Shown: positions 18,420 through 23,408 of the stretch, piece after piece
Layout of the letters: each line of letters starts with the position of its first letter
Numbering within the stretch: the stretch's first letter is position 1
IMG/VR virus record: IMGVR_UViG_3300045911_000130
Span: 1-64,000 of that record
Origin: a virus
Direction: 5' to 3' (one strand)
DNA: 64,000 bases
The notes under the pieces: generated by a model
Seen by the model: only the letters and a program-made list of their open reading frames with translations
Told to the model about the DNA's origin: nothing
The model's database searches: none
Position numbers and translations under genes: made by a program

Positions 18420-18744
18420 GAATGTTGTCTATGCTCCGCCGCAACCGCCTGCCCGAAAGTGTATTTGCGGCGGCCAGACTTATCGCAAGGACCGCATGGA
18501 TCACTTTTGGTATTGCGTGGCGTGTGGCCGGTGTACCGGGCGATCTGGCGCGGACAGGTGGGGATTTTGGCCGGTTTTCCAGTGCTATAACTGCAAGCAG
18601 TATCTCTGTTTTAAGAGAGATCCGACAAGACAAAGCTGGACGTGGTTTTGCACGCATTGTAACGCCTATCAGTTCGATGAGCATTGGATGGTGGACGGCT
18701 TTATGAATCTGGACCTTGAGGGATTGGAGAATTTCGACTTATGA
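18412..18744 (+). CDS. Cys/Trp-rich double Zn-ribbon protein
   Basis: CIC, CVAC, CYNC, CTHC. Confidence 0.65.
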   Translation: MSKNVVYAPPQPPARKCICGGQTYRKDRMDHFWYCVACGRCTGRSGADRWGFWPVFQCYNCKQYLCFKRDPTRQSWTWFCTHCNAYQFDEHWMVDGFMNLDLEGLENFDL

Positions 18745-19100
18745 GAAGAAAAGTGTCTCAGGGAGAGACGTTGGATCAGAGAGTTTTTCGGGCTGAAGCC
18801 GAAGCGCACTCCGGCGAATTGACACTGAAGGAATACATTGAATGCCGTGACTTCGTGGAAGCACGCATTCGGCATTGGATACACTTATTGGGCTTGCGCT
18901 GGTGGGAGGTAGTTACTAATTACTACAATACCGAGAAGAGCGCCGACGGGGAAGATTCTATCGTTATGGCGCGGTGCTGGACGGAGTGGGAGTATCGCAA
19001 GATTATTACTTCCTGGTACATGCCGACGATTAACAGGACTATTGGCCGGGATCAAGTGAAGCTGGATAGGCTCATTATCCATGAGTTCATGCACGCCATG
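18741..19100 (+). pseudogene. HExxH metallopeptidase-like gene interrupted by the IS605 insertion
   Basis: IIHEFMH motif immediately before the IS right end; the ORF runs 6 codons into the IS before stopping. Confidence 0.6.
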
Positions 19101-19250
19101 TTGACATCCTCCCCGGCCTGAAGGCCGGAGATTCCTACGGCGCTCAGGCGCGGCATTGAGCCGCCCCTGAGTCGCTTCGGTGGGTTCCTGCTGCTGGCGG
19201 CATTACCGCACCGCTCACTTCACAGGCTAACCGGGCGTGCCCCGCCCTTA
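19081..19250 (-). ncRNA. Predicted TnpB omega/reRNA (scaffold in the IS right end, guide from the flank: CATGGCGTGCATGAACTCAT); boundaries approximate
   Basis: Established TnpB architecture; RE hairpin seen; transcript not observable. Confidence 0.55.
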
Positions 19251-20364
19251 GAACGTTGATCGCGCCGACCACATCGGCGTTTTCCTCGAAGCCGCATTCC
19301 ACACACTCAAAACGGGCTTGTGTCCGGCGATTCTGTGCCGACACATGGCCGCAACAGGGACACGTGCGGCTCGTGTTCTGCGGCGGCACGGCAATGAGAT
19401 GACCGCCGTTCCACGCCAACTTGTAGTCCAATTGGCGGCGAAACTCGAACCAGCCCTGATCGAGGATGGACTTGTTCAGGCCAGACTTGGCCCGAACGTT
19501 TCTTCCTGGCGCATCTGCTGTGCCTGCCGCTGACCTGGACATGTTCCGCACCTGCAAGTCCTCGATGACCACCATCGCGTGGTTTTGGCTGATCGTGGTC
19601 GTGACTTTGTGCAGGTAGTCGCGGCGGGCATTCTTGACGCGGGAATGAATCTTCTGGACGTGGGCTTTGGCCTTTTTCCAGTTGTTGCTGAACTTGACCT
19701 TGCGGCTCATCGCCTGCTGCGCACGGCGCAAGCGCGTTTCATGCCGCTTGAAGCTGTTCAGCGGCGCATAGAAGCGCCCGTCCGAGAGCGTAGCAAAGCG
19801 TGCCACACCCATATCGATGCCAACCGCGCCGCCCTTCGGGATGGGTTGTTCAACCTCGCGCTCGGTCTGGATGCTCACATACCACTTGCCGCAGGCCTGG
19901 CTGACGGTGACGTTCTTCACCGTGCCCAGCACGTCCCGGCTATTGCGGTAGCGCAGCCAGCCCAGCTTGGGCAGAAACAGGCGGCTGTTCGCTTGGTCAA
20001 GCTTGATCTGTTTCGGGTCGGGATAGCGAAAGCTGTCGTGTTGGCCTTTCTTCTTGAAGCGCGGGAAGTCGGCCCGCTTGGCGAAGAAGTTGCTGTAGGC
20101 CCGCTCCAAATCCTTGAGCGCCTGTTGCAAGGGATGGACAGGCGACTCGGCCAGCCATGCCGTTTCCGCGCCGTTGCGCCACGCGGTAAGCAGCTTGCAC
20201 AACCCGGCATAGCCGAGCTTCTTTTCGCCTTGCTCGTAACGCGCCTTCTGCAAAGCCAGCGCCTTGTTGAATACGAAGCGGCATGAACCAGCAAAGCGGC
20301 GCATTTGCCGCTCTTGCTGGCCGTTTGGCCGCAGTTCGTACTTGTAGGCTGACTGGATAATCAT
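19144..20364 (-). CDS. tnpB: RNA-guided endonuclease TnpB
   Basis: HTH_OrfB N-terminus, RuvC D (GIDMG), E (IEDL) and D (NAD) intact, CPCC/CVEC Zn finger. Confidence 0.95.
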   Translation of the reverse strand: MIIQSAYKYELRPNGQQERQMRRFAGSCRFVFNKALALQKARYEQGEKKLGYAGLCKLLTAWRNGAETAWLAESPVHPLQQALKDLERAYSNFFAKRADFPRFKKKGQHDSFRYPDPKQIKLDQANSRLFLPKLGWLRYRNSRDVLGTVKNVTVSQACGKWYVSIQTEREVEQPIPKGGAVGIDMGVARFATLSDGRFYAPLNSFKRHETRLRRAQQAMSRKVKFSNNWKKAKAHVQKIHSRVKNARRDYLHKVTTTISQNHAMVVIEDLQVRNMSRSAAGTADAPGRNVRAKSGLNKSILDQGWFEFRRQLDYKLAWNGGHLIAVPPQNTSRTCPCCGHVSAQNRRTQARFECVECGFEENADVVGAINVLRAGHARLACEVSGAVMPPAAGTHRSDSGAAQCRA

Positions 20365-20960
20365 GCCGTACCAGCCGCTCGCCTTCGTTCGTGGTAGGCG
20401 CGCTTGCTGGACGCGATCTTGGCTCTTGTCTCCGGCGACAAAGTACGCCGTCTATTAGCTTCAGATCGTTTGCGCCTGGTTTCTTCGGATAGATTTTCGC
20501 GCTTCTTGGATTCCGATATTTTTCGCTTCGTTTCATCGTCCCATTTGCGAACCTTGGCATTCTCAGAGCGTAGCTTTCTGACGTGATTTGGCGTTGGCCT
20601 GCCTTTGTTCTTCTCAGACATCTTCCTGCGCGTTTCTTCAGAAGGGTTTTCAAGCCCTTCCCCGCCGTCTGTGCTGTTCACCAGTGTCTCTCGGTACTCG
20701 GCAATAAAGCGTTTCTCGTGCGCCTGCCATCCATTAGCAGGCACTTCAGCAAGCAGCCTAACGACTGGGATTACCCCATCTGCCAAAAGCGCCCTAATCC
20801 AGTATCCACGGTGATTTTTCAATCCTCGGCGTGCTTCACCGACATGGCGCATTCTGCGCGTTTCGATCTTCATGTACGTCTTACCGACGTAACGTACTAC
20901 ATCCGGCCTTTGTGGGTCGAACAAGGCGTAAATGTAAACGGTTTCTTGAAGTCGTTGCAT
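20361..20960 (-). CDS. GIY-YIG homing endonuclease-like protein with NUMOD3-type repeats
   Basis: YIYAL..RYVGKT, R..H, E, N motifs; four SEETRRKMS-like repeats. Confidence 0.85.
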   Translation of the reverse strand: MQRLQETVYIYALFDPQRPDVVRYVGKTYMKIETRRMRHVGEARRGLKNHRGYWIRALLADGVIPVVRLLAEVPANGWQAHEKRFIAEYRETLVNSTDGGEGLENPSEETRRKMSEKNKGRPTPNHVRKLRSENAKVRKWDDETKRKISESKKRENLSEETRRKRSEANRRRTLSPETRAKIASSKRAYHERRRAAGTA

Positions 20961-20982
20961 AGCTCAATCATACTCTTGGTAT

Positions 20983-21396
20983 ATGAGCGATGACAACGAT
21001 ATTAGGCACGGACGACACTGCGTTTTCAAGATGCACGTCCATTTGGTCTTTGTGGCGAAATATCGCCGTAGGGTGTTCGACGGCGACGCCATCAACCGGC
21101 TGCGTACCATCTTCGCCAAGGTCTGCGCCGACTTTGAGACGCAACTGGTCGAGATGGACGGTGAGGACGATCACGTTCACCTGTTGGTTGAGTACCCGCC
21201 CAAGGTGGCCGTCTCGAATCCGGTGAACAGCCTCAAAGGCGTGTCCAGCCGCTTGCTGCGCAAGGAGCGGCCCGACATCCAGAAACGCTACTGGAAGGGC
21301 GTGCTGTGGTCGCCGTCCTACTTCGCCTCCTCCTGTGGCGGTGCGCCGATTTCCATCGTGCGCCAGTACATTGAACAGCAGCAGACACCCTACTGA
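20983..21396 (+). CDS. tnpA: Y1 HUH transposase TnpA
   Basis: HLVFVAKYRR, DHVHLL (HUH), LWSPSYF, catalytic Y in RQYIEQQ. Confidence 0.95.
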   Translation: MSDDNDIRHGRHCVFKMHVHLVFVAKYRRRVFDGDAINRLRTIFAKVCADFETQLVEMDGEDDHVHLLVEYPPKVAVSNPVNSLKGVSSRLLRKERPDIQKRYWKGVLWSPSYFASSCGGAPISIVRQYIEQQQTPY

Positions 21397-21513
21397 AAAG
21401 CTTTGCTTTCTGCGAAGCAAAAACCAAGGACGGCAACAAAGTCCGCGCTATCCTTCCCCGCCCTGAACGGCGGGGCTTGTCGCGCACCGGGTCAATCGAC
21501 TAGTACTCTTTAT

Positions 21514-21529
21514 GCTACGACTGCGTAGC
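21514..21529. promoter_or_regulatory. Palindromic operator-like site GCTACGACTGCGTAGC
   Basis: Matches GCTAY-N6-GTAGC; preceded by TAGTACT at 21501. Confidence 0.6.
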
Positions 21530-21565
21530 GCTTTTGGGAAATTACTGATACTATTGGAAACGCGA

Positions 21566-21769
21566 ATGACTTACGAAGGGGAAGTGACGATTGAAGGGGT
21601 GCGGTACTTGCCGCTGAAGCAAGCGGCGACGTTGCTTGGTGTGCATGAGGTTACAGTTCGCAAGTGGTTGAGCAGCCGTTCTGACATTGAATCCATAAAA
21701 TATCTCGACCGGCAGTTTTTGGCGGTCGAGTGGATTGAGAGGGAGATGGAGGATCGCTGTGACGGCTGA
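21566..21769 (+). CDS. Excisionase/MerR-like HTH DNA-binding protein
   Basis: YLPLKQAATLLGVHEVTVRKW. Confidence 0.75.
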   Translation: MTYEGEVTIEGVRYLPLKQAATLLGVHEVTVRKWLSSRSDIESIKYLDRQFLAVEWIEREMEDRCDG

Positions 21770-23408
21770 GGAACTAGATTCATGGATCGCGAACAAGACC
21801 GGAAACCCGATGAGCAGTGTTTTTCAGGAATACGGTATCAGCGATGTCAGCTTTCAGATTGTCAATTCCAGGCGGCAAAAAATTCACCGCCATCCATTGT
21901 TTCAATGTGTGAGCTTGTTGCAGCAACAGAATGATGTGGCCGGAAAAAGTCCCGCCGAGGTTGGGGTGATGTTGATGGGGAGCATTCCGGTTGCCTGTCA
22001 GTATGTCACGCTCCAAGCGTTACGGAATGTTGCCAGATTCCCTATACCCATGGCAAACGCAGCGGAACGCAAGCGCTTGTATTTAGAGTTTATGGACTCC
22101 GTGCAGGCTGATATTCCTAGCAAAGATGTGTTCATCCCAAGCATTGTATGGACGGCGATGGTACAAATGCTCGGCGGCGGCAATACGGACACTGAGTTTG
22201 GAGAATTTGCGGTAATACTAACTGCAATGGCAAAAGGCTCTACGGAACGGATGAATCCGCAAATCGTGGCGCAGTTGGCGAATTACTTCGAGTTTGACTC
22301 TAAGCGCTCCGATGTCGTCAATCGATACTATGCGGAATGGTATGGGTATGGGTATGGGTTGAACAAGCAGGTTGTTTTGGCTGCTTACTGTATCGGCGCG
22401 GAATGCGCAGCATATGACTCATTGATGCAATCTGGATCTACTCCATCAATAGATGGCATATGTGCCTACATGGACGAGATTGCCAAGGTCATCGAATACT
22501 GGATGCGTCCCAGCCCCGGACAAAGATGGATGAAACAGCAAGAGGGTGTTGTGCGGGCGATGGTGATGAGCGACGAATACTTCGGGAAGGTGCTTTCATA
22601 TAATGAACGCGGTCCTTTTATCGAAGCTATCATTCGGCGATACCCAGAGGGCTCAACGATAACACGGCAAAATGTTATAGACGAACTGTTCTACGAAAAG
22701 ATTCTCAGGCAGGCAAATGCCGGTATGCTGGAAGGCTTCAATTTGAGCACGTTCATCCAGGAGTACAAAGGCATGAAAGGATCACCCAAAAAGTATTCGG
22801 ATTATTATGCCGAGATGACGGAGTTGGCTAATAGGTATGGCATCCCTGTTAAGATCGGTGCGCCTGGGTGGTGGGATTTATTGCTGAAGAAGGCTTGGGA
22901 TGCCGCAGCAAAGGACATGAAAGATGGCATCGCGGCAGTTTACAATCTTGCCGTTGCTCGCGCCAGCTTCCAGGCGGGTAGGGTGGCCGCGCTGTTAAGA
23001 GAGACACAGCTAGAGAGCGACAAGGCCATAATGACAGCAGCTATATTCAATGTGATGTTGTCTGGTGAGTATGTTTTAGGCGAGCGGGAAACCGACGACC
23101 AGATACGCCTTGAGTTCAATAATATTCGCGCAAAGAATGCCGCAGCAGCGGAAATAGAGCGAGTCCGAAGCAACCAGAGGCGCAATAACGAGATGCGGCA
23201 GCCGCCGCGCCAGCAGCCAACCCAGCTTGAAAATGTAGCTTGGAAGTCAGGTGTAGCTGTAACCTTTGCTCCTGGGTTTATCTTGCCGCAACGGCAGGAA
23301 TCGAAGCCGCGAGCGAAGAAGGGCAAGCCTGATCCGACTCCAAGCGAGCCCATCGAACTGCAAGTCGATCCGTTGACGAGCCCCAGAAAATTCAACTTTG
23401 AGGAATAG
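21759..23408 (+). CDS. Large hypothetical helical protein
   Basis: GGAGG SD before GTG; about 550 aa. Confidence 0.75.
   Translation: MTAEELDSWIANKTGNPMSSVFQEYGISDVSFQIVNSRRQKIHRHPLFQCVSLLQQQNDVAGKSPAEVGVMLMGSIPVACQYVTLQALRNVARFPIPMANAAERKRLYLEFMDSVQADIPSKDVFIPSIVWTAMVQMLGGGNTDTEFGEFAVILTAMAKGSTERMNPQIVAQLANYFEFDSKRSDVVNRYYAEWYGYGYGLNKQVVLAAYCIGAECAAYDSLMQSGSTPSIDGICAYMDEIAKVIEYWMRPSPGQRWMKQQEGVVRAMVMSDEYFGKVLSYNERGPFIEAIIRRYPEGSTITRQNVIDELFYEKILRQANAGMLEGFNLSTFIQEYKGMKGSPKKYSDYYAEMTELANRYGIPVKIGAPGWWDLLLKKAWDAAAKDMKDGIAAVYNLAVARASFQAGRVAALLRETQLESDKAIMTAAIFNVMLSGEYVLGERETDDQIRLEFNNIRAKNAAAAEIERVRSNQRRNNEMRQPPRQQPTQLENVAWKSGVAVTFAPGFILPQRQESKPRAKKGKPDPTPSEPIELQVDPLTSPRKFNFEE

Follow-up and report, generated by a model that had tools for sequence, protein, structure and literature searches.

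A GIY-YIG endonuclease gene between codons 5 and 6 of tnpB in a phage-borne IS200/IS605-family element

Homing endonuclease genes are found within introns and inteins and also as free-standing genes of phages. The locus described here raises the question how a gene of this kind came to lie within the coding sequence of a transposon-encoded nuclease, and whether it homes there. The window (the whole stretch of DNA analysed, 64,000 nucleotides) is part of a record that represents a complete 103-kb phage genome, and this genome holds an IS200/IS605-family element in a single copy. With a GIY-YIG gene in tnpB, tnpB in an IS and the IS in a phage, the locus is a three-level nest of selfish DNA, of which no description was found in the literature searched; nor did this search give a paper placing a protein homing endonuclease within tnpB. 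An earlier note on this DNA had proposed that a phage-type endonuclease gene was inserted at the 5′ end of tnpB, captured its start and supplied a new, coupled start. Colinear alleles, shared codons, the full-length TnpB and the GC3 values support this proposal. Table 1 gives an overview of the features of the locus.

Table 1 Features of the IS200/IS605-family element and of the inserted cassette (positions in the window)
Feature	Position	Strand	Remarks
Whole IS200/IS605-family element	19101..21490	- (oriented by tnpB)	2390 bp; 1794 bp without cassette
Flank 3′ of right end	19081..19100	-	starts CATGGCGTGCATGAAC; presumed guide-matching sequence of omega-RNA
Right end	19101..19290	-	hairpin 19113-19128; presumed omega-RNA scaffold overlapping tnpB 3′ end; from sequence
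tnpB	19144..20364	-	406 aa; starts MIIQSAYKYEL; residues 1-5 are MIIQS replacing MQRLQ
Homing-endonuclease cassette	20350..20945	-	596 bp; placement ambiguous by 2 nt (AG); between tnpB codons 5 and 6
GIY-YIG + NUMOD3 endonuclease ORF	20361..20960	-	199 aa; starts MQRLQETVYIY
ATGA stop/start overlap	20361..20364	-	endonuclease stop and TnpB ATG; couples TnpB translation; read from sequence
Original tnpB codons 1-5	20946..20960	-	ATG CAA CGA CTT CAA; now the first codons of the endonuclease ORF; identical in L058
Promoter-like site	20967..20996	-	TTGTCA, 18-nt spacer, TATGAT; -10 ends 6 nt before ATG
tnpA, Y1 (HUH) transposase	20983..21396	+	137 aa; Pfam Y1_Tnp PF01797, E 3.9e-45
Left end	21397..21490	-	hairpin 21456-21475; homologous left ends in Methylocalor, B. 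pyrrocinia, L059, L061
TGAC	21491..21494	-	directly 5′ of left end; presumed target/TAM

The element shows the features of the IS200/IS605 family, namely a Y1 HUH transposase, a full-length TnpB, subterminal hairpins, no inverted repeats and a fixed tetranucleotide 5′ of the left end. The tnpA and tnpB genes are divergently transcribed. The tnpA match spans profile positions 1-121 of 121 of PF01797. TnpB has kept its normal length and the Pfam domains HTH_OrfB_IS605, OrfB_IS605 and Cas12f1-like TNB, its residues 2-383 align with residues 2-378 of ISDra2 TnpB (8h1j/8exa, E 7e-57), and the D/E/D motifs GIDMG, IEDL and NADV are present (alignment, by eye). In the window tnpA, TnpB, both IS ends and the catalytic residues of the endonuclease are all intact. 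The borders of the element were located by the matches of relatives, which start at 19097-19101 and stop at 21494-21499. A solo copy of the right end in L058 (1217-1389) is 99.4% identical across 173 nt. The tetranucleotide TGAC adjoins the left end in three independent elements, and the flank TGAC followed by CCGGTGC is common to the Methylocalor and B. pyrrocinia elements; TGAC probably serves as target/TAM. An omega-RNA may be encoded at the 3′ end of tnpB, where the 173 nt of the right end are strongly conserved and Rfam gave a weak HgcC-like match below threshold (19088-19168, 22 bits). If the published TnpB model (10.1101/2023.11.20.567912) holds for this element, the flank 3′ of the right end would be the guide-matching sequence. 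An IS-free relative of the phage showing the empty site was looked for and none was found.

The earlier note had located an insert of 596 bp with AG at its junctions and had expected a colinear IS lacking it. BLASTN against L058 yielded two collinear pieces with 95-95.7% identity, window 21284-20945 matching L058 2662-3001 and window 20350-19097 matching L058 3000-4254. Thus, exactly 596 bp are missing in L058, with an overlap of 2 nt (AG), and the N-terminus across the empty site reads MQRLQAYKYEL. For L059, L060 and L061 the matches are interrupted at these two coordinates as well, so that the insert is precisely missing in all four records, and plasmid megablast matches end at 20350 or begin at 20946. 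Nucleotide identity of the colinear insert-free alleles was 95.7% for L058 and 86%, 85% and 86% for the three more distant ones. This precision of the junctions, recurring in independent records, is far beyond chance. Codons 1-5, which head the endonuclease ORF, are homologous to sequence of B. pyrrocinia and L061. The starts of the two ORFs (MQRLQ-ETVYIY and MIIQS-AYKYEL) and their ATGA overlap, read from ORFs and sequence, were as the note had given them.

The insert is coding along all of its 596 nt, as had been claimed, and no Rfam intron was found in 18500-22000 at E ≤ 1, which rejects a group I intron or IStron. An intein was rejected as well: a length of 596 nt is not divisible by 3, the ORF runs into a TGA stop, and the restart of TnpB lies in a different frame. 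The GC3 of the insert (0.535) lies far below that of tnpB (0.759) and tnpA (0.797), a base composition foreign to the IS genes.

The encoded protein is predicted to consist of an intact I-TevI-like GIY-YIG domain followed by NUMOD3 repeats. An AF2 model (pLDDT 87) showed a catalytic domain of the order b-b-a-a-b-a, then five helices, and matched the catalytic domain of I-TevI (1mk0) with Z 10.2 and rmsd 2.6 over 93/97 residues; 5hmC-specific GIY-YIG restriction endonucleases, T4 EndoII and UvrC were the next structural matches. A PDB profile search also gave 1mk0 (E 7e-4). Residues Y24, G26, R35, H39, E82 and N95 are invariant across 42 homologues, and Y11 nearly so. C-terminal to the catalytic domain the family consensus has repeated SEETRxK-type units, and NUMOD3 (PF07460) was detected with 26.9 bits at a cut-off of 20.4. 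Pfam GIY-YIG (PF01541) gave no match to the endonuclease at E ≤ 0.01; homologues at 32-51% identity do carry PF01541, and this probably reflects a limit of model sensitivity and not an absent domain. The search for PF01541 gave no match on the genome at E ≤ 1 either, and no other GIY-YIG genes were found in the phage.

The endonuclease ORF opens with the promoter region, the ATG and five codons of tnpB. The cassette itself has no start codon and is translated from the tnpB ATG, while its last 15 nt provide TnpB with a new ATG and four codons. In 25/31 unique insert-free loci a -10-like hexamer (≥ 5/6) precedes the tnpB ATG by 6-7 nt, and in none of the 31 was a Shine-Dalgarno-like 4-mer found before it. 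Leaderless expression of tnpB in this IS group therefore appears likely. The presumed target region of the endonuclease is the most conserved stretch in the surroundings of the tnpB start. The note had stated that TnpBs of this group start MQRLQA(F/Y)KYEL; indeed, of the 120 nearest TnpBs about 105 have a start of the type M[QKRE]R[LFI]Q-A[FY]K, as do 31/31 unique viral loci.

About ten clusters of related endonucleases, 62-99% identical, were found in metagenomes, and in 8/10 of them the protein begins with the tnpB-type start M[QKL]R[LI]Q, in one of these as a read-through from antisense tnpA; the homologues P0006 and P0007 begin MSDKL and MNNKI, not MQRLQ. From JGI metagenomes only L008 and L009 were recovered, both ending inside the endonuclease. 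They come from other samples than the window and have the same 5′ junction, and L008 is an independent bacterial metagenome contig with chromosomal context, adjoining ahpC. The complete insert-bearing locus was read as DNA only in this window. Comparison of the window and L008 endonucleases gave a dN of 0.25 with saturated dS, which indicates purifying selection on the endonuclease. No close copies of the endonuclease were found in IMG/VR, in PLSDB plasmids (one match, 37%), in INPHARED phages (all under 41%) or in GTDB contigs, where a scan restricted to exact peptides of the window protein gave one distant match.

Presence of the cassette can also be traced through TnpB. The longest contigs of the endonuclease and TnpB clusters share their sizes (20093 bp for P0242 and P0181, 2127 bp for P0006 and P0123), and from these sizes together with codon logic we infer that other endonucleases adjoin TnpBs of the MLVLS, MFIKC and MLIKQ types. 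From residue 6 to the C-terminus, TnpBs whose first five residues are replaced (MIIQS, MLVLS, MFIKC) match TnpBs of the MQRLQ type with 95.3%, 99.75% and 100% identity; for the window TnpB this is P0126 (residues 6-406). Thus, presence or absence of the cassette is polymorphic within IS lineages. P0181/P0244 (100%) and P0123/P0141 (99.75%) presumably are presence/absence pairs like the window and L058. On the TnpB tree, those with a replaced N-terminus occupy four separate positions, and four changes are required by the starred branches.

Relatives that natively start MIIQSAY would have spoken against an insertion, and in appearance such relatives exist, since the cultured Ralstonia phages Dimitile and Cimandef start MIIQSAF. 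In both, however, about 45 nt from the 3′ end of the endonuclease gene remain upstream. This cassette scar implies that their alleles descend from an insert-bearing allele, and with MIIQS in 1/120 of the nearest TnpBs it was rejected as a native start. The 45-nt scars and a truncated endonuclease copy of 111 aa (P0011) appear to be decay stages of the cassette.

According to these data, a GIY-YIG homing endonuclease gene of the free-standing type probably colonised tnpB of an IS605-family element between codons 5 and 6 and homes into insert-free alleles. In the proposed scheme tnpB would be expressed from a leaderless or near-leaderless mRNA by way of the conserved -10 element. With the insertion site just inside the ORF, a cassette lacking promoter and start codon could thus gain expression while neither tnpB nor the divergent tnpA is silenced. 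The endonuclease would recognise a conserved stretch at the 5′ end of the tnpB coding sequence in insert-free alleles, around the putative site ATGCAACGnCTnCAA followed by GCCTnCAA, which insertion would disrupt. Insert-free alleles would be cut, and repair from an insert-bearing copy would bring the cassette in. TnpB would be re-initiated at the endonuclease stop with its length unchanged. The cassette may spread in this way among IS copies of chromosomes, plasmids and phages, and may in addition be carried along by the IS through TnpA transposition and TnpB-driven retention. The endonuclease would act as a parasite of the IS, at a cost kept low by the coupled restart. Against this reading stand the starts of P0006 and P0007, the missing PF01541 match and the rarity of the insert. 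We lean slightly towards a further-reaching reading, in which a GIY-YIG lineage has specialised on the gene of an IS-encoded RNA-guided nuclease as its homing site. It would be a true hyperparasite, a gene drive within a gene drive, moving between chromosomes and phages, and its cassette would be adapted to a leaderless gene by having no promoter, no start codon and a built-in coupled restart.

Alternatively, the cassette might be an old passenger that entered once in an ancestor and is now cargo of the IS through TnpA and TnpB, decaying or otherwise kept, the insert-free alleles arising by gene conversion and no homing taking place. The scars and truncated copies agree with this, as does the rarity of the insert, which was present in 0/68 related tnpB loci of IMG/VR. 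Endonuclease divergence tracks or exceeds that of the IS: between IS lineages amino acid identity is 68-78% for the endonuclease, 80% for tnpA and 85-89% for TnpB, in agreement both with long co-divergence and with homing across lineages. The missing co-conversion signal would also be in line with a passenger; a co-conversion tract beside the insert was sought and none was visible, but with flanks that match L058 without a difference over 36 and 96 nt this search carries no information. Nevertheless, the catalytic residues are invariant in homologues that share 62-78% identity with the window protein, and dN lies well under the saturated dS, which argues for continued selection on nuclease function. 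Moreover, the insert-bearing TnpBs are dispersed over the tree, with near-identical insert-free TnpBs beside each of them. This requires repeated exact events, for which homing is the simplest explanation. An old passenger is considered unlikely.

Still less probable is a recruited helper, which would cut DNA other than tnpB (competing phages, the host or IS-free target sites) to the benefit of the IS or the phage, like the marker exclusion by Seg/Mob endonucleases. The IS does reside in a phage, the distant relatives of the endonuclease (30-46% identity) occur in viral contigs and phages and are annotated as Seg-like or intron-associated, and in phages, free-standing endonucleases frequently cleave a gene nearby and not the point of their own insertion (PMC2988022). 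However, the same cassette occupies the same tnpB site in the chromosomal context of L008, its distribution tracks the IS and not the phage, and the phage has no second GIY-YIG gene. An assembly chimera or sequencing artefact joining a phage endonuclease gene to the IS, weighed only since the record is a metagenome assembly and supported by nothing found, can be dismissed for practical purposes, because the identical endonuclease protein lies on 4 contigs and the identical TnpB on 3, the 5′ junction recurs in L008 and L009, the isolates Dimitile and Cimandef have the 3′ junction, and frame-keeping junctions with ATGA coupling are not expected from a chimera.

If the endonuclease does home into insert-free tnpB, the locus would be a clean natural example of one selfish element living as a parasite on another, with a target site that is short, conserved and testable. 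Its expression would follow a compact scheme, namely capture of a leaderless start followed by coupled translation. The locus would also provide a GIY-YIG endonuclease of new specificity and a TnpB variant in which an altered N-terminus is tolerated, and IS copies of phages and chromosomes would draw on one pool of such cassettes.

The cassette shares features with several known systems. Like the free-standing GIY-YIG endonucleases of phages (T4 Seg family) and I-TevI, its protein has the I-TevI fold in the N-terminal part and NUMOD3 repeats in the C-terminal part, and the gene shows presence/absence at a single fixed site, with neither intron nor intein. The I-TevI tail has a zinc finger and an H-T-H, whereas the cassette endonuclease probably lacks such a tail. 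The host gene differs as well, being tnpB of a mobile IS and not a phage or cellular housekeeping gene, and the cassette, which lacks a start codon, uses five codons taken from its target. An endonuclease gene within a coding sequence, without intron or intein, is also found in Aeh1 nrdA split by mobE (PMC3045599) and in other ‘fractured genes’ (PMC2677866), which retain the host function through separate expression of the parts. Here, in contrast, the upstream ‘part’ amounts to five dispensable codons that now belong to the endonuclease ORF, and the coupled start supplied by the cassette restores TnpB as a whole, so that no assembly of protein fragments is needed. TnpB elements are RNA-guided homing systems that are also combined with group I introns (10.1101/2023.11.20.567912). 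Such IStrons, made of a group I intron and an IS605/IS607 tnpB, likewise have a second selfish module on a TnpB-bearing IS, and the likeness makes one ask whether two homing strategies conflict or cooperate here. The module found here is a protein endonuclease inside tnpB and not an intron wrapping the IS, and since Rfam detected no ribozyme in the insert, neutrality is not reached by splicing. All parts of TnpB-guided homing of IS200/IS605 elements (10.1101/2023.11.20.567912) are present (Y1 TnpA, full-length TnpB, subterminal hairpins, TGAC at the left end), and nested among them is a second, protein-guided nuclease that presumably targets the IS itself and not the empty site.

The virus record is complete (103,463 bp with direct terminal repeats, its first 64 kb forming the window). 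The table gives an overview of the IS200/IS605 element that it carries. ISDra2 TnpB, for which a structure has been solved, aligns with residues 2-383 of the tnpB product (E 7e-57). The endonuclease TGA and the tnpB ATG overlap as ATGA, and this overlap as well as both protein starts (MQRLQETVYIY and MIIQS) read as claimed in the earlier note. On the tnpB strand TGAC directly precedes the left end of the IS, as in two unrelated plasmid copies. Adjoining the IS is the 3′ part of a phage ORF (18741-19121), with ..HEFMHAM as its last residues, at 19100. Deletion of 19101-21490 fuses this ORF in frame to 21491-21769, a region with a weak HTH match (HTH_17, E 9e-4); a 212-aa phage gene may have been split by IS insertion. 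Counter to this reading, a promoter-like motif reported earlier (TAGTACT at 21501, palindrome at 21514) occupies the same spot.

Features of the IS200/IS605 element in the window
Feature	Position	Strand/location	Remarks
IS200/IS605-family element	19101-21490		one copy
tnpA, Y1 transposase	20983-21396	+	Pfam match E 3.9e-45
tnpB, 406 aa	19144-20364	-	three of three TnpB Pfam domains
Endonuclease ORF, 199 aa	20361-20960	tnpB strand, between tnpA and tnpB	start MQRLQETVYIY
Left-end hairpin	21456-21475		of the type expected
Right-end hairpin	19113-19128		of the type expected

BLASTN revealed the same IS on the viral contig L058 (95-95.7% nucleotide identity), in two collinear pieces joining at L058 3000/3001, which corresponds to window 20945 and 20350. 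Thus, L058 lacks 596 bp, and the pieces overlap by 2 nt (AG). L058 reads ATG CAA CGA CTT CAA directly followed by GCC TAC AAG and encodes MQRLQAYKYEL, exactly the insert-free product that had been predicted from the window. Three further collinear alleles lacking 20350-20945 (L059, L060, L061; 85-86% identical) are interrupted at these two coordinates as well, plasmid copies end at 20350 and Xylella copies begin at 20946. About 105 of the 120 TnpBs closest in the first 45 residues start with M[QRKE]R[LFI]Q and continue with A[YF]K; among these 120, MIIQS is found in the window protein only. The native start is present in all 31 unique insert-free viral loci, and both data sets fit the group start MQRLQA(F/Y)KYEL given in the earlier note. 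The insert was found in none of 68 related tnpB loci of IMG/VR.

NUMOD3 is the sole Pfam domain scored on the endonuclease (26.9 bits); PF01541 (GIY-YIG) gave no score. A profile of 42 homologues matched the I-TevI catalytic domain in the PDB (E 7e-4). An AlphaFold model (pLDDT 87, order b-b-a-a-b-a) superposed on the structure of this domain (1mk0) with Z 10.2 and an rmsd of 2.6 Å over 93 of 97 residues, followed by 5hmC-specific GIY-YIG restriction endonucleases, T4 EndoII and UvrC. This shows that a GIY-YIG domain is present despite the silent PF01541. Residues Y24, G26, R35, H39, E82 and N95 do not vary, and Y11 hardly does. Comparison with the metagenome contig L008 yielded a dN of 0.25 with saturated dS. 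GC3 of the endonuclease ORF (0.535) differs from that of tnpB (0.759) and tnpA (0.797) and is near the overall G+C of the phage (0.52-0.54). According to these data, the endonuclease gene is foreign to the IS, intact and under selection.

The cassette lacks an ATG of its own, and the endonuclease ORF opens with the ATG and five codons of tnpB, identical to L058. Upstream of this ATG lies a promoter-like site (TTGTCA, 18-nt spacer, TATGAT), its end 6 nt away from the ATG. Of the 31 unique insert-free loci, 25 have a TATAAT-like hexamer (5 or 6 of 6 positions matching) located 6-7 nt ahead of the ATG; a Shine-Dalgarno-like 4-mer precedes tnpB in none of the 31. Translation of tnpB in this IS group seems to start on mRNA that is leaderless or almost so; just inside the ORF would then be the spot at which a promoterless cassette gets expressed. 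The final 15 nt of the cassette (ATG ATT ATC CAG TCA) replace the five lost codons and thereby leave TnpB length unchanged. The overlap suggests that TnpB synthesis re-initiates at ATGA. The insert does not disturb the 37 nt that precede the tnpA ATG.

A collection of 5.8 billion proteins contained ten clusters with 62-99% identity to the endonuclease. Eight of them start with MQRLQ, MKRLQ, MKRIQ or MLRLQ, including one over-called through the antisense of tnpA. The metagenome contigs L008 and L009, which stop within the endonuclease, show the divergent tnpA and the 5′ junction as in the window, and a peroxiredoxin (ahpC-like) ORF upstream of the IS. In three more TnpBs the first five residues are swapped at the same position, to MLVLS (P0123), MFIKC (P0181) and MLIKQ (P0168). 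Compared from residue 6 through to the C-terminus, the window TnpB shares 95.3% identity with P0126; P0123 reaches 99.75% with P0141, and P0181 matches the MQRLQ-type P0244 completely (100%). The four odd-start proteins require four changes on the TnpB tree, all forced by well-supported branches. Longest contigs (20093, 2127) common to endonuclease and TnpB clusters, together with the C-terminus fit, suggest that P0123, P0181 and P0168 also adjoin an endonuclease: by codon reasoning from the proteins, the termini ..AACL-stop and ..GQC-stop would fit an overlap with ATG TTT ATA and ATG CTA GTN, respectively. The endonucleases thus form a family, and presence of the cassette is polymorphic within IS lineages.

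The homologues P0006 and P0007 (72-73% identity) begin not with the tnpB-derived MQRLQ but with MSDKLELVA and MNNKIDLVA, and P0006 seemingly shares one 2127-bp contig with the MLVLS-type P0123. Their 5′ junction could differ, or they could represent a form that has its own start. In two metagenome contigs (L024:4001-7344, L025:2069-5421) a distant TnpB (25% identity) is preceded, at a distance of about 2 kb, by a distant endonuclease relative with 46% identity across residues 10-120; this may reflect chance or a second, independent association.

Relatives natively starting MIIQSAY would have spoken against an insertion. The cultured Ralstonia phages Dimitile and Cimandef do have a tnpB starting MIIQSAF, but about 45 nt before it are homologous to the endonuclease ORF 3′ end; this stretch is the scar of an insert-bearing IS. 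Beyond it, no endonuclease, tnpA or left-end homology was found around tnpB. P0011 is a truncated endonuclease copy (111 aa). In Dimitile (L002:2546-3842; same in Cimandef) tnpB is intact (406 aa) and phage sequence with TACAAT lies upstream of the scar; this TnpB may be phage-retained and run from a phage promoter.

A homing endonuclease gene is the most likely mechanism, matching the pattern in four points: the site is fixed and lies in conserved sequence, nearly identical alleles occur both with the insert and without it, the nuclease is intact, and decayed copies exist. The endonuclease would cleave tnpB alleles that lack the insert, close to the conserved 5′ coding sequence, which the insertion splits, protecting the carrier allele. 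Repair from an insert-bearing copy would spread the cassette, and the coupled TnpB restart would keep the cost to the IS low. If homing operates, endonuclease, IS and phage form a three-deep nest with three different DNA-breaking enzymes. Nevertheless, between IS lineages the endonucleases differ no less than the IS genes do (window and L008 share 68% aa identity in the endonuclease and 80% in tnpA), and no co-conversion tract is visible at the insert. Both observations count against recent cross-lineage homing; long residence in each IS lineage with turnover within the lineage fits equally well. An old passenger that has lost homing is rather unlikely, and a recruited nuclease with another target is considerably less probable still. 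An artefact can practically be dismissed.

The nearest known systems are IStrons (10.1101/2023.11.20.567912), the free-standing GIY-YIG genes found in T4-like phages (PMC2988022) and genes interrupted by a free-standing endonuclease gene (PMC3045599, PMC2677866). Unlike these, the window has a protein homing endonuclease inside tnpB, an arrangement for which a full-text literature search returned no report.

In L058, a 173-nt stretch (L058:1217-1389) with 99.4% identity to window 19101-19273 forms a solo copy of the right end/omega-RNA region; a truncated tnpA (L058:2662-3001; homology only from window 21284) lies 1.3 kb downstream. A rearrangement or a second copy in decay may account for this. 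Three places in Ralstonia phage Eline match the last 55 nt of the window right end (19101-19155) at 100% identity. Matches to the left-end hairpin region (21445-21495) occur at 95-98% in Ralstonia phages Claudette, Gerry, Alix and Gamede, and further ones in twelve Pseudomonas aeruginosa phages, whose annotation calls the region a pseudo tRNA-Gly (104 nt); ARAGORN detected no tRNA in the window copy. Such phage matches are probably solo IS ends and give a hint of a Ralstonia or Burkholderiaceae host.
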